DNA from: Occultella glacieicola
Lineage (GTDB): Bacteria; Actinomycetota; Actinomycetes; Actinomycetales; Beutenbergiaceae
Direction of reading: 5' to 3'
Length of the DNA: 64,000 bases
NCBI RefSeq assembly: GCF_004353825.1
Contig: NZ_SMNA01000007.1
Location: forward strand, 248,001 to 312,000
In this document: positions 35,270-39,817 of the stretch, one piece after another
Position numbering within the stretch: the first letter of the stretch is position 1
Layout: every line of letters starts with the position of its first letter
Made by a program: the position numbers and the translations under genes
Notes under the pieces: model-generated
What the model was told of the DNA's origin: nothing
Seen by the model: only the letters and a program-made list of their open reading frames with translations
Databases searched by the model: none

Positions 35270-36349
35270 TCAGACGAATCGTTCGAGCAGCGAGGACTCC
35301 GCCTGCCGGGACAGGCCCTCGCGGACGGCCCGGGCACGCTGGGTACCCACACCCTCGACCACCTCGAGGTCGTCGATGGTGGCCGAGAGCATCCGCTGGA
35401 GCGAGCCGAAGTGCTCCACCAGGGCCGTGACCACGGACATCGGCAGACGCGGCACCTTCGTCAGCATCCGGAAGCCGCGTGGGGCGATCGCCGAGTCCAG
35501 GGACTCGCCCTGGCGGCCGCCCACGCCGATCACCCGGGAGATCTGGGTGAGGTCGATCAGCTGGGTGGAGTCCAGTTCCGCGAGCGCGTCGAGCACGTCG
35601 TCGAGGGTGCGGGCGCTGCGCGGGTCGAGGTAGTCACGGACCACGAGCTCCAGGTCCGGCCCGATGCCGCCGATCAGTTCGTCGAACTGGAGGGCGAGCA
35701 GGCGCCCGTTCGTGCCGAGCTCGACGACGTAGTCCGAGATCTCCGCGGAGATCCGGCGCACCATCTCCAGCCGCTGGACCACGGCCGCGACGTCGCGCAC
35801 CGTCACCAGGTCCTCGATCTCGAGAGCGGAGAGGGTGCCGGAGACCTCGTCCAGGCGGGCCTTGTAGCGCTCCAGGGTGGCCAGGGCCTGGTTCGCCCGG
35901 GACAGGATCACGTCCGAGTCCTCGAGCACGTACCGGCTGCCGCCGACGTAGAGGGCGACGATCCGCATGGACTGGCTGACCGAGATCACCGGGAAGCCGG
36001 TCTGTTTGGCCGCCCGCTCGGCGGTCCGGTGCCGGGTGCCGGACTCGGTGGTCTCGATCGTGGAGTCCGGCAGCAGCTGCACCTGGGCCCGCACGATCCG
36101 GTTGCGGTTGTGGTCCACGACGATCGCGCCGTCCATCTTGGCCAGCTCTCGCAGCCGCGTGGAGGAGAAGTCCACGTCCAGTTCGAAGCCGCCGGAGCTG
36201 ATCTCCTCGACCACGGGGTTGTACCCGAGCACGATCAGGGCCCCGGTGCGCCCGCGCAGGATCCGCTCAAGGCCGTCCCGCAACTCGGTTCCCGGCGCGA
36301 CTGCGCGCAGGGTCTCCCGGAAGAGTTCGGGCAAGGCCACGTCAGCCAC
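35270..36349 (-). CDS. disA: DNA integrity scanning diadenylate cyclase
   Basis: APGTELRDG, KMDGA, GTRHRTA motifs, C-terminal HhH. Confidence 0.96.
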   Translation of the reverse strand: MADVALPELFRETLRAVAPGTELRDGLERILRGRTGALIVLGYNPVVEEISSGGFELDVDFSSTRLRELAKMDGAIVVDHNRNRIVRAQVQLLPDSTIETTESGTRHRTAERAAKQTGFPVISVSQSMRIVALYVGGSRYVLEDSDVILSRANQALATLERYKARLDEVSGTLSALEIEDLVTVRDVAAVVQRLEMVRRISAEISDYVVELGTNGRLLALQFDELIGGIGPDLELVVRDYLDPRSARTLDDVLDALAELDSTQLIDLTQISRVIGVGGRQGESLDSAIAPRGFRMLTKVPRLPMSVVTALVEHFGSLQRMLSATIDDLEVVEGVGTQRARAVREGLSRQAESSLLERFV

Positions 36350-36406
36350 TGTGGTTCCCCCAAGGAGGTTCGATCCGTTCCGCTGCCGACGCAGCCGGGG
36401 CCAACT

Positions 36407-37810
36407 CTACGCGAGTCGGATCGGGCGGCGCCGGACACCGAACTGGGCGGCCGTGATCGCCTGCAGGAGGTCCTCGGCGCGGACCACCTCGATGGCCGCC
36501 GGCGGCTCGCCCTCGAGATCCGTGGCGGCCGGGATGATCGCCCGGGAGAAGCCGAGGCGGGCCACCTCCGCGAGGCGCCGGCGGGTCCCGACGGCGGGGC
36601 GCAGGTCGCCCGCCAGGCCTACCTCGCCGATCGCGACCAGGCCGTCCACGAGCTCGAAGTCCTGCCGGGCGCTGACCACTGCGAGGGCGATGGCCAGGTC
36701 CGCGGCCGGTTCGATCGCCCGCGCGCCGCCGACCGTGGAGACGTAGATGTCCATGCCGGAGGTGTCGATGCCGGCCCGGGAGCCCAGGACGGCCAGGGTC
36801 ATCAGCACCCGCGAGGACTCCACCCCGGCCGTGGTGCGGCGTGGGTTCGGCATCACGGTGCGGTTGGTGAGCGCCTGGATCTCGGTCGGCATGGGCCGGC
36901 GCCCGTCAAGAGTGACGGTGACGCAGGTGCCCGGCACCGGGTCCCGCTTCCCGGACAGGAACAGCCCGCTCGGATCCGCCAGCGAGTGGATGCCCGTCTC
37001 GGTGAGGCTGAAGCAGCCGACCTCGTCGGTGGTGCCGTACCGGTTCTTCACGGCCCGTACCATCCGCAGTTCGGCGTGCTTGTCCCCCTCGAACTGGCAG
37101 ACCACGTCCACCAGGTGTTCCAGGACCCGCGGCCCGGCGATCGACCCGTCCTTGGTCACGTGGCCCACCAGGATCACCGGCGTGGCCGTGCGCTTGGCCA
37201 CCGCGATCAGTGCCGCCGCCACCTCCCGCACCTGGGACACGCCGCCCGCGGAACCGTCCACCTGCGCGGACGCGATCGTCTGGACCGAGTCGATGACGAG
37301 CAGGTCGGGGGTGTGCGCCTCGATGTGCCCGAGCACCGTACCGAGGTCGGTCTCGGCGGCCAGCAGGAGGCCGGGACGGATCGCACCGATGCGTTCGGCG
37401 CGCAACCGGACCTGACTCGCCGACTCCTCACCGGTGACGTAGAGGACCTTCGACCCGGCCTCCGCCGTGCGGGCCGCCACGTCCAGCAGCAGGGTCGACT
37501 TGCCCACCCCTGGTTCGCCGGCGAGCAGCACCACGGCCCCGGGCACGATCCCGCCGCCGAGGACCCGGTCGAACTCCCCGACGCCGGTCGGCCGGTACCG
37601 GGCCTCCTCCGCGTCCACGTCCGCGATCGGCTGCGCCGGACTCCGCAACGGCGCGGCGACGGCGGTCCGCGGGCCGGTCGCGACGGCGCCGGCCTCCACC
37701 ACCGTGCCCCAGGCCTGGCACTCACCGCATCGGCCCACCCACTTCGCCGTGGTCCAGCCGCACTCGGTGCAGCGGTGGACGGGACGCTGGGCGCGGGCGG
37801 TCGAACTCAT
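36407..37810 (-). CDS. radA: DNA repair protein RadA/Sms
   Basis: C4 Zn finger, Walker A GEPGVGKS, KNRYG motif. Confidence 0.97.
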   Translation of the reverse strand: MSSTARAQRPVHRCTECGWTTAKWVGRCGECQAWGTVVEAGAVATGPRTAVAAPLRSPAQPIADVDAEEARYRPTGVGEFDRVLGGGIVPGAVVLLAGEPGVGKSTLLLDVAARTAEAGSKVLYVTGEESASQVRLRAERIGAIRPGLLLAAETDLGTVLGHIEAHTPDLLVIDSVQTIASAQVDGSAGGVSQVREVAAALIAVAKRTATPVILVGHVTKDGSIAGPRVLEHLVDVVCQFEGDKHAELRMVRAVKNRYGTTDEVGCFSLTETGIHSLADPSGLFLSGKRDPVPGTCVTVTLDGRRPMPTEIQALTNRTVMPNPRRTTAGVESSRVLMTLAVLGSRAGIDTSGMDIYVSTVGGARAIEPAADLAIALAVVSARQDFELVDGLVAIGEVGLAGDLRPAVGTRRRLAEVARLGFSRAIIPAATDLEGEPPAAIEVVRAEDLLQAITAAQFGVRRRPIRLA

Positions 37811-37959
37811 GCATCCGACGGTAGCGCCCGGTCACGACAATCCGCCGTCAGCGACGCGGCGCTGTGCACCGCCGCGCCGGGCAGGCATCGGCACCGACGC
37901 ACTCGCCCACTGGCGCGTCGCGCGAGACGTCGCCGCGGACCCCGCGATAGTGTGGGGAC

Positions 37960-38132
37960 CGCTCTTCCGGCGTGGCCTACGCCGAACCTCCTCGGGTCGA
38001 CCCCAGCTCGGTCCACTGCACAGTTGCGCACCGGAGGCAAAGGGACTCGGTCTCAGGTCGCCGTCGTCGGACACTCTGACGCCGTGCACCGGGCACCGCT
38101 GGGGGGACCGGGGCAGGGCACCGGAGTTGGAT
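37960..38132 (+). ncRNA. Candidate structured cis-regulatory leader RNA
   Basis: TAGTGT -10 at 37948; long interrupted stem 37987-38007/38098-38117, hairpins 37968-37984 and 38065-38081. Confidence 0.4.
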
Positions 38133-39158
38133 ATGACGACCGACCGAGCACTCAAGAACAAGATCCGGGACCGGGCCGCACGCACCGGCGAGTCCTACAC
38201 GGCCGCGCGCCGGCACCTCGTCCGCGACGAGGCGCAGTCCCGCGAGCGCCACGGTGCCCAACCCGACCAACCCGACCAACCCGACCAACACGTCCAGCCG
38301 GACGGTCCGTCGGTGCGGCTGGCGACCGCCCAGACCACGCCGCGCGAGGACCCGGGCGACGCCGCCGCCTTCGCCGCGGCCGGCGACGAGGTGGTGGCGT
38401 TGATCGACGACGCGGCGCGGTTGGAGGCGAGACTGCTGCACCTGCCGGAGGCGGCCCTGTGCTTCCCCTCGAAGTGGCTGCTCTCCAGTGTTCCGGGGGA
38501 GGTCGCCGAGGCGGACTGGACGAAGTTCGCCTGGGACGCTCAGGACCTGGCCCTCACGCGGATCCGGGCCCGGGCCGCGGACCGGGGCGTGTGGGTGGTG
38601 CTCGGTGCCGTCACCCACGGCGGGGCCGACACAGCGCGACCGCACCTGAGCCTGCTCGTCATCGACCCGACCGGGCGGATCCACACGACCTACCAGGAGC
38701 GGCTGCTGTCCCGGACCAAGGCGTCCTACCTCTACGAGGCCGGCACCCGCTCGACCCTCTTCGAGGTCGACGGCGTCAGGTTCGGGTGCACCTCCGGCCT
38801 GGAGATCCTGTTCCCGGAGGTGTACGGCGACTACCAGGCCCTCGGAGCCGACTGTGTCCTGTACTCCACCGCCGGGCCGGGCGAGCCCGAGGCCGCCGGC
38901 ACCCTGGCCTCGTCGGCGCTGGTGGCGGCACGCCACGACGGGCTGTGGATCAGTTACGCCGTGCACAGCGACAAGGCGGCGCACGAGCCGGCGGGCCTGA
39001 TCGACCCGAACGGGAGCTGGCGGGCGCGGTGTGAGGCCGTCGACGCGCCGGGGCTCACCGTCGCCACGGTGACGGCGCGGCCGGAGGACGGGGCCCGGCA
39101 GTGGCACCGCTGGACGTCGCAGGCCTACCGCGCGGGCCGGTCCGAGGCGGGTGTCTGA
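38133..39158 (+). CDS. Carbon-nitrogen hydrolase-fold protein with basic N-terminal 'TGESYTAARR' module
   Basis: GGAG RBS; LHLPEAAL, LLVIDPTG, FEVDGVRFG..LEILFPE, GADCVLYS, GLIDPNG nitrilase-fold motifs. Confidence 0.8.
   Translation: MTTDRALKNKIRDRAARTGESYTAARRHLVRDEAQSRERHGAQPDQPDQPDQHVQPDGPSVRLATAQTTPREDPGDAAAFAAAGDEVVALIDDAARLEARLLHLPEAALCFPSKWLLSSVPGEVAEADWTKFAWDAQDLALTRIRARAADRGVWVVLGAVTHGGADTARPHLSLLVIDPTGRIHTTYQERLLSRTKASYLYEAGTRSTLFEVDGVRFGCTSGLEILFPEVYGDYQALGADCVLYSTAGPGEPEAAGTLASSALVAARHDGLWISYAVHSDKAAHEPAGLIDPNGSWRARCEAVDAPGLTVATVTARPEDGARQWHRWTSQAYRAGRSEAGV
38259..38289 (+). repeat. 9-bp tandem repeat (CAACCCGAC x3.4) encoding a QPD linker
   Basis: Visible directly between the two domains. 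Confidence 0.85.
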
Positions 39159-39226: not shown

Positions 39227-39817
39227 ATGGCCGCGATCGGCAAACTCGAGCTGAACCGGCGCACCGTCACCATCGGTGTGTTGGTGATCGTGGTGGTGGC
39301 GGCGGTCACCGTTTTCGTGGCGATGTTGACCTCGGACCGTGGCGGCGCCGCGTCGGCGCCGACCACGACCGTCACGACCACCGGGCCGGTGCCCACCCCG
39401 CAGACCGAGCCGATCGCCCGGGACACCGCGACGGCTCTGCTCGCTGCGCTCCCGGACACCGTGCTCGGCTACGCCGTCAGCGCGCAGGTCGCCGACGAGG
39501 CGATGGTCGCCGCCGGCGCGATCGAGGGCTGGCAGCTCACCTACACCGGTGCCGACGGGGACGTCACGGTCCGGCTCGGCCAATGGGAGACCGCCGACGA
39601 GGCCGCCGCCGCGCTGCCCGGACTGGCCGCCGCGGACGGCGCCGAGGTCGTCGAGGAGGGCGAGGTCGAGGCCGCGGGTGCGCCGGCCGGGACGTTCCAG
39701 ATCCTCTCCGTCGACGGCGCCGGCCGGGCCGCGTGGACGAACGGCACCGTCGCGATCGTGGTGGACGGACCGGACGCCGACGAGGTCCGGGCCGTGTACC
39801 TGGCCTACCCGCTCTGA
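39227..39817 (+). CDS. Hypothetical membrane-anchored protein
   Basis: N-terminal TM, Thr/Pro linker, acidic domain; directly upstream of proC. Confidence 0.7.
   Translation: MAAIGKLELNRRTVTIGVLVIVVVAAVTVFVAMLTSDRGGAASAPTTTVTTTGPVPTPQTEPIARDTATALLAALPDTVLGYAVSAQVADEAMVAAGAIEGWQLTYTGADGDVTVRLGQWETADEAAAALPGLAAADGAEVVEEGEVEAAGAPAGTFQILSVDGAGRAAWTNGTVAIVVDGPDADEVRAVYLAYPL

Follow-up and report, generated by a model that had tools for sequence, protein, structure and literature searches.

The locus described here lies in a window of 64,000 nucleotides from Occultella glacieicola; coordinates given without a locus name are window positions on the forward strand. Its central feature is an open reading frame of 341 amino acids at 38133-39158, opened by the ATG at 38133, which stands back to back with radA, with 322 intergenic bases between the two. 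One flank (35270-37810) carries disA and radA, both named by Pfam, and the other (39227-39817) encodes a membrane-anchored protein of 196 amino acids without a family, which also follows the gene in three orthologous loci. The intergenic space holds a leader of 164 nt (37969-38132), one copy of an RNA family that is represented in no Rfam model. A preliminary description of this DNA had proposed that such a leader and a short basic peptide at the head of the protein form a portable cassette in which the peptide binds its own leader. We use the word cassette in this sense, call the peptide the module, and call the domain fused to it the cargo.

The protein is built in three parts. The Arg/Lys-rich module is present as described, a basic segment with two predicted helices at residues 1-30 (38133-38222), delimited by conservation and AlphaFold. 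It is followed by a variable linker (38223-38309) with low pLDDT at residues 47-52; the (QPD)3 repeat seen there earlier is real, but it is specific to this genome, missing from the three closest orthologs (L003-L005), and incidental. The enzyme fold expected beyond the linker (38310-39158) is a nitrilase-fold domain, matched at residues 63-246 by Pfam CN_hydrolase (E 2e-12), with amidases as its Foldseek matches (E 3e-17). The register of the catalytic residues was set against NitFhit 1ems. In this register the window protein keeps the catalytic Glu106, and the positions of the Lys and the Cys of the Glu-Lys-Cys triad are occupied by Glu189 and Gly222. The same holds for 29 of the 29 cassette-bearing nitrilases, which share the fold and the first Glu with the PF00795 amidases but differ from them in both other residues, Lys being replaced by Glu or Asp and Cys by Gly. 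The window cargo is predicted to be a dead nitrilase, that is, a pseudo-enzyme with a conserved pocket. The dead state is confined to one clade, which points to one event.

Structure of the leader RNA

Taken alone, the window leader has a minimum-energy fold no better than that of its shuffled versions (z = -0.14; 80/200 shuffles as good), and neither a consensus promoter, in a strict sigma-70 scan, nor a terminator was found at it. The Rfam scan that had been suggested for it returned no match: the Rfam 15 covariance models gave none at gathering score in the window or in ten relatives, and further comparison with Rfam yielded chance matches only (E 1.5-5.7). The case for the RNA thus rests on its relatives. 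We scored the core GGCG-loop-CGCC-NNA-CCUC...GAGG-CAAA-GG, with a score designed on the sequences scored, in 115 distinct upstream regions (four unpublished loci included), and 109 of them reached at least 23, compared with 0 of 300 random pieces of the Occultella glacieicola genome. A covariance model was built from 76 of the scored regions, and 193 of 215 leaders were anchored for the counts of P4, P6 and the ribosome-binding site (RBS); the 22 dropped include the second copy in this genome.

These comparisons show a leader composed of P1, P2 to P4, a pseudoknot, a 7-bp kissing interaction and P6, and compensatory changes back every element except the invariant P1. P1 (37969-37983) is a GGCG/CGCC hairpin, 99.7% paired and nearly invariant in the 76 sequences, and the first hairpin drawn earlier at 37968-37984 survives in it; its loop (37973-37979) supplies the 5' half of the pseudoknot. 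After a conserved A at 37986 comes P2 (37987-37991 with 38033-38037), which is 98.2% paired in the 76 sequences with two-sided changes at four of five pairs, and which encloses P3 (37994-38000 with 38008-38014) to fill 37987-38037. P3 is paired in 87-100 of 100 cases and shows 9-24 coupled changes per pair on the cargo trees. A conserved CAAA junction (38038-38041) leads to the P4 hairpin (38042-38046 with 38050-38054), whose first three pairs are formed in 193/193, 193/193 and 185/193 leaders and which is 93.2% paired in the 76-sequence alignment; the pairs at its base in the window are G-C, G.U and G-C. The bases immediately behind P4 (38055-38059) pair with the P1 loop, closing the pseudoknot from the 3' side. 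The longest helix between the two strands measures 5.42 bp in own leaders against 4.18 +/- 0.07 bp in permuted ones, and all three counted pairs show two-sided change. Across P2, P4 and the pseudoknot (17 pairs), 95.9% are paired and 142 two-sided changes were counted, where shuffles give 37.9 +/- 6.0; slid-alignment controls for the same 17 pairs reach at most 56% paired.

The 7-nt loop of P3 (38001-38007) has a perfect 7-bp partner in its own leader in 82 of 111 cases, against 19.1 +/- 3.7 with permuted partners. The partner, which sits 31-45 nt 5' of the start codon (38098-38104 in the window), is itself the loop of the long hairpin P6 (38073-38127, placed by covariation and a constrained fold), and the interaction is therefore a kissing loop. 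On four cargo-cluster trees its three variable pairs show coupled change 9, 9 and 12 times or more, and they are paired in 145/145, a count inflated because the partner was chosen as the best match. The loop-closing pairs of P6 also covary.

The earlier reading of the leader stands in its main claim, since a conserved and covarying structure does lie upstream of the homologous peptide genes, but the secondary structure proposed was largely wrong; the three helices it named are those of the minimum-energy fold. Its long stem (37987-38007 with 38098-38117) has no comparative support, because the CCTCC in it pairs with 38033-38037, and 37994-38000 with 38008-38014. What is left of this stem is the pairing of CCCCAGC with GCTGGGG, as a loop-loop kiss. 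The inner hairpin at 38065-38081 keeps 6 of 7 pairs in L004 and L005 and 5 of 7 in L003 (by eye), but only in this genus; it would compete for 38073-38078 and is a possible local switch there. The four copies of GCACCG are found in the leader but are not conserved in the RNA family, and are incidental. As for the remark that most neighbouring genes are leaderless, three neighbours were checked: radA fits, but the other two have purine-rich, RBS-like stretches.

The GGAG RBS is confirmed at 38123-38126 and is 80-95% conserved in the 193 leaders. In the constrained fold of the window leader it is paired with the base of P6 (38073-38078), and we consider it plausible that this base can hide the RBS. 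Pairing with the 16 nt directly 5' of the start codon, the P6 5' arm forms a duplex worth -14.2 kcal/mol in own leaders, against -11.5 +/- 0.2 kcal/mol in swapped ones; the RBS core is no more likely to be paired there than in the swapped controls (0.70 vs 0.67). As the duplex energy favours the own leader but the pairing probability does not, occlusion is plausible rather than proven. No family-wide alternative fold was found. At the other end of the leader, the TAGTGT named earlier as a -10 element is present at 37948-37953, but the strict sigma-70 scan misses it. TAnnnT stands 6-9 nt 5' of P1 in 70 of 107 relatives, and at 15 nt in this genus, which suggests that the RNA normally begins at the 5' end of the transcript. 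In the window, transcription likely starts near 37960.

Several other structures were considered and rejected. A pseudoknot joining the P1 loop to the GGG behind CAAA and an anti-RBS role of the conserved CUC both failed, in that own pairs scored worse than permuted ones (79.6% paired in a further count); GGG and CUC pair together as P4. Extension of the RNA structure into the coding region gave a best pairing excess of 0.25, against 0.4-0.54 for real helices. Resemblances to glycine, c-di-GMP, HDV-like and pistol RNAs were dropped in view of the absent Rfam match and the wrong topology. HDV-like ribozymes have P2, P3 and L3 nested inside P1, whose two strands are just 6-10 nt apart here.

The module and its linkage to the RNA

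In 211 of 215 sequences, eight residues of the module (K8, R12, R14, T18, G19, E20, Y22 and A25) reach 98-100% conservation, a figure inflated because the set was picked with the module profile. Synonymous variation is free at the invariant positions, and the module is selected as protein. AlphaFold places helices at residues 5-18 and 22-40 with pLDDT of about 90. With the first 33 residues as query, 22 short-list relatives were obtained among 1.84 billion representatives; the Atlas matches are unnamed and score below 0.9. No match to the module was found in Pfam, NCBIfam or PDB sequences or in GenBank phages, and the full-length window protein was not found in viral contigs. A profile built from 11 module sequences matches 44 of 301 genomes of Actinomycetota (two weak matches and eight unpublished genomes included) and 472 of 599 candidate stretches in a species collection. 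The 80 matches listed among these 472 fall in Actinomycetota, Acidobacteriota, Pseudomonadota, Myxococcota, Chloroflexota, Gemmatimonadota, Planctomycetota and cyanobacterial lineages, and the nearest named locus is on an Occultella contig (L015).

It is conceivable that the module binds its own promoter DNA, as a transcriptional repressor resembling ClpC2, with the leader as its operator or as a separate element. The basic, helix-turn-helix-like shape agrees with this, as does a weak RHH match in one of the 11 module members (E 0.053), the module sequences matching no DNA-binding family otherwise. However, covariation of a loop-loop contact and a pseudoknot with G.U pairs is sensible only in single-stranded RNA, and no conserved palindrome exists upstream of P1. 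We regard DNA binding as very unlikely.

RNA and module are linked in both directions. Starting from the module, all 33 loci left out of the covariance model turn out to have the element where it is expected, four low scorers among them, although many of the 33 are kin of the training set. Ten weaker module matches have the RNA at eight loci; it is decayed at L315 (unpublished genome G186) and absent at L318. Starting from the RNA, a sequence pattern that used no protein information gave at least 120 metagenome and 9 viral stretches; with seven left out as too short, 111 of 122 have the module 140-210 nt downstream. Among the remaining 11, nine were judged by eye to be chance and two are 5' halves (L219, L246). 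In covariance-model searches, which cover the top 56-150 candidates per genome, 15 of 17 RNAs in 61 relatives and 16 of 19 in 80 genomes of the phylum come with a module, two of these matches being in unpublished genomes (G121, G158). The own genome has two RNAs and two module genes, and they are paired.

L318 (position 991, minus strand; G229) combines a divergent module with an 8-bp hairpin over the RBS, seen by eye, in place of the knotted RNA, and is possibly a sister system. Broken copies also occur: in L152 (1501-1700), L219 and L246 the 5' half of the RNA is joined to a gene interior or to unrelated DNA, and in L343 a nitrilase cassette gene is partly duplicated.

The nitrilases allow module and cargo to be separated. 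Seven module-less nitrilase relatives keep the Cys (six of the seven are shown with the Lys) and have no RNA, the best score being 14.5 bits. Six of the module-less relatives, with both Lys and Cys, are plasmid sequences from a cargo-side search, out of about 20 such matches. Among 12 genomic cargo-side matches, ten combine the RNA with a dead site, one has the Cys and neither module nor RNA, and one is a broken duplicate. Since module-less relatives of the same enzyme have no RNA, the RNA follows the module and not the cargo. These module-less nitrilases (L325-L330, L342) form a subfamily on Streptomyces plasmids that is probably active; the nitrilase gene of L327 follows a 185-amino-acid gene annotated as XRE, which we take to resemble a linear-plasmid terminal protein.

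Cargo diversity and further copies

The claim that such N-termini occur on many unrelated proteins is borne out, and the module is not restricted to nitrilase folds. Among 103 cargo proteins, 30 are BtrH_N/DUF4872, 25 CN_hydrolase and 24 DUF4287/AHSA1, 21 have no match, and Clp_N (L070), WD40 and DUF1835 occur once each; FHA, TPR, sigma-70 region 1.2 and bifunctional nuclease were also seen. By BLAST, 177 proteins fall into 18 cargo clusters, of which at least two singletons are frameshifted members of larger clusters. Leaders that are 76-82% alike precede different cargo, as expected if leader and module are indeed a portable unit. In the BtrH-type cargo the Cys column stands at 62.5% of 16, so that a dead state does not emerge there.

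This diversity bears on the possibility that the RNA works as a riboswitch, or senses stress, independently of the protein, with the module acting as a nascent-chain effect or as a degradation or localisation tag. A start close to the promoter, invariant junction bases, a kissing loop and an RBS in the last stem would all suit a riboswitch. Yet a riboswitch should follow gene function, and the genes here belong to 18 clusters and not to one pathway: whatever unrelated cargo follows, the RNA accompanies the module, and relatives of the same enzyme that lack the module lack the RNA too. We consider this explanation improbable.

The second cassette of this genome (L001:2701-4010, G000:C18:238700-240009) joins leader and module to an APH-like domain, which scores 0.98 in Atlas and has no Pfam match, and is conserved in the genus and in G010. 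With HGN and IVGW, this domain presumably carries Asn and Gly at the positions of the two Asp of APH kinases. Three giant-phage records of 213-497 kb carry two cassettes each before unrelated proteins (G357:C1:3088 and 493139; G360:C1:217116 and 225613; G358:C1:5465 and 9591), two of the records being near-identical here. Their leaders show compensatory changes in P1 and P2, and no known ligand domain was found in the phage cargo. The full cassette was also seen on Rhizobium and Sinorhizobium plasmids (L323:2853-3993, L324:2853-3990); in L323 the module ATG stands 108 nt downstream of the annotated start (2893), which falls within the RNA.

The surroundings of the cassette gene vary. At 85 loci the next gene is on the same strand in 47 and on the opposite strand in 38, which suggests that the cassette gene mostly regulates only itself, and no conserved downstream gene emerged from crude ORF calls. 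Short genes that overlap the cassette stop codon encode DUF1761 (L028, L053, L112), a glyoxalase (L085, L097) or STAS (L068), and may be co-regulated with it.

We also considered that the leader is a stable RNA in a lasting ribonucleoprotein, as a scaffold or tether, or that promoter, RNA and peptide are a selfish unit capturing genes. The compact double-pseudoknot fold, the exchange of cassettes between cargo, the two copies in each giant-phage record and the broken copies L152, L219 and L343 are in line with it. However, the RNA is always contiguous with the RBS and the start codon at 140-210 nt, no terminator follows it here, genomes hold 1-4 copies, and 32 downstream genes include one resolvase and no other mobility gene. 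This reading we hold to be slightly less probable than an independent riboswitch.

Proposed mechanism and known systems

The RNA is tied to the module whatever the cargo, and it lies on the module's own mRNA, with the promoter on one side and the RBS on the other; most simply, it is the module's binding site. We propose the following mechanism. A promoter would start transcription at or just 5' of P1. The leader would then fold into a double pseudoknot, made by the pseudoknot and the kissing loop, and thereby dock the RBS-bearing hairpin P6. The basic module, whose invariant residues include K/R/R/Y, would bind this fold, with P1/P4 and the invariant A's of the junctions as the probable contacts, and binding would set translation of its own mRNA, repression being judged somewhat likelier than activation. 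Finally, the fused domain would bind a ligand or protein and so alter the module's hold on the RNA; as the ligand would change this hold, the protein would be made when the ligand is present and act as a sensor and sponge. Considering that no operon is conserved, the output of the circuit would mainly be the protein itself.

The steps of this proposal differ in strength. A structured leader abutting or covering the RBS on its own mRNA is what an autogenous operator looks like, the RBS pairing being partly supported, and we think it probable that the module binds the leader; against this, physical linkage alone gives co-occurrence. A possible specificity contact is that of Asp6 with a guanine. 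In 189 cassettes, Asp at module position 6 (codon 38148-38150) coincides with G as the sixth base counted from the start of P4 (38047 in the window) in 69 of 70 cases, and in 69 of 72 in reverse; a tree-aware count over 1064 residue-base pairs places this pairing only between the 90th and 99th percentile. The full model, in which the module binds its own leader and controls translation, with the cargo as sponge or ligand sensor, we favour with slightly better than even confidence.

Plain feedback would explain the same RNA-module linkage. Binding of the module to the leader would then fix a low protein level, and the cargo, be it decoy, scaffold or phage effector, would not gate the binding. 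Cargo made of interaction domains (WD40, TPR, FHA, Clp_N, sigma-70 region 1.2), the phage proteins without assigned function and the variable linkers, which speak against fixed allostery, are in keeping with it. Against it, the nitrilases have lost catalytic residues while the pocket is conserved, and only where they bear the cassette; moreover, DUF1835 also occurs as a C-terminal extension of ECF264 sigma factors, according to 10.1101/2019.12.11.873521. Ungated feedback is unlikely in our judgement, if less so than the other alternatives.

Control of translation by a protein bound to its own mRNA has precedents, and several known systems resemble the proposed sensor-gated switch. Ribosomal proteins control translation of their own mRNA through pseudoknotted leaders (S15, S4, L20); the cassette has no known rRNA-binding protein, rRNA mimicry or Rfam match, and differs by a detachable peptide on unrelated proteins. 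Some cobalamin riboswitches use a kissing loop, and other riboswitches a pseudoknot that sequesters the RBS; as proposed for the cassette, the kiss docks the RBS hairpin. The cassette RNA has no Rfam match to them, and its gene association follows the peptide and not a pathway.

ANTAR (PF03861; AmiR, NasR, EutV, Rv1626) is a small helical RNA-binding output domain on varied sensors, whose actinobacterial cognate leaders often cover the RBS and whose target RNA has two hairpins with hexaloops (A1, G4), as described in PMC8164766. The two module helices can be superposed on those of ANTAR, with 32 residues aligned at 0.7-0.9 A, and four ANTAR proteins rank 5, 11, 12 and 20 of 48,161 chains, at weak Z scores of 3.6-4.1 that UBA domains equal, so that the likeness in shape is a lead. 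Homology by sequence could not be shown: PF03861 matches neither the window protein nor the 11 module sequences at E up to 10, and the hhalign probability of 0.3-0.7% is at chance level, 2 of 30 column shuffles doing as well. Unlike ANTAR, the module is N-terminal with only two conserved helices, and its RNA is a 160-nt double pseudoknot with loops of 6-9 nt (P1) and 7 nt (P3, P6) that are paired in pseudoknots, in place of two hexaloop hairpins; the only cassette targets found are the module's own genes.

A parallel in logic is mycobacterial ClpC2, which represses its own promoter, acts as a drug sponge and is released from repression by the ligand (PMC10030653). In the proposed model the cassette would share with it a small N-terminal regulatory domain, a ligand-binding copy of a cellular domain and self-only regulation, and a fusion of the module with Clp_N exists (L070). 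ClpC2, as that source describes it, binds promoter DNA, whereas the conserved element of the cassette is a structured RNA and its cargo is interchangeable. The regulatory logic is already known; the RNA family and the protein domain are uncatalogued. No description of either was found in the literature consulted, including PMC8632094 and PMC10318531, although supplements of motif surveys could list the RNA.

The module and its RNA add an uncatalogued domain and RNA family in 44 of 301 sampled Actinomycetota genomes and several other phyla, and the plasmid copies in Rhizobium and Sinorhizobium make the cassette testable in tractable hosts. As a tentative generalisation, to which we give somewhat less than even weight, module and leader may be a transferable switch for one-component regulators at the RNA level, with dead enzymes and decoys serving as sensors for differing signals. 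Such signals could be an antibiotic, a metabolite or a damaged protein, and giant phages could have adopted the switch. If the module gates the leader, the fused domains would be a list of testable sensors for ligands yet to be named, and several DUFs, as well as annotated carbon-nitrogen hydrolases that are unable to be active thiol enzymes, would gain a function. It would also offer synthetic biology a compact peptide-RNA switch, and, if true, would be among the smallest known natural protein-gated switches of translation.
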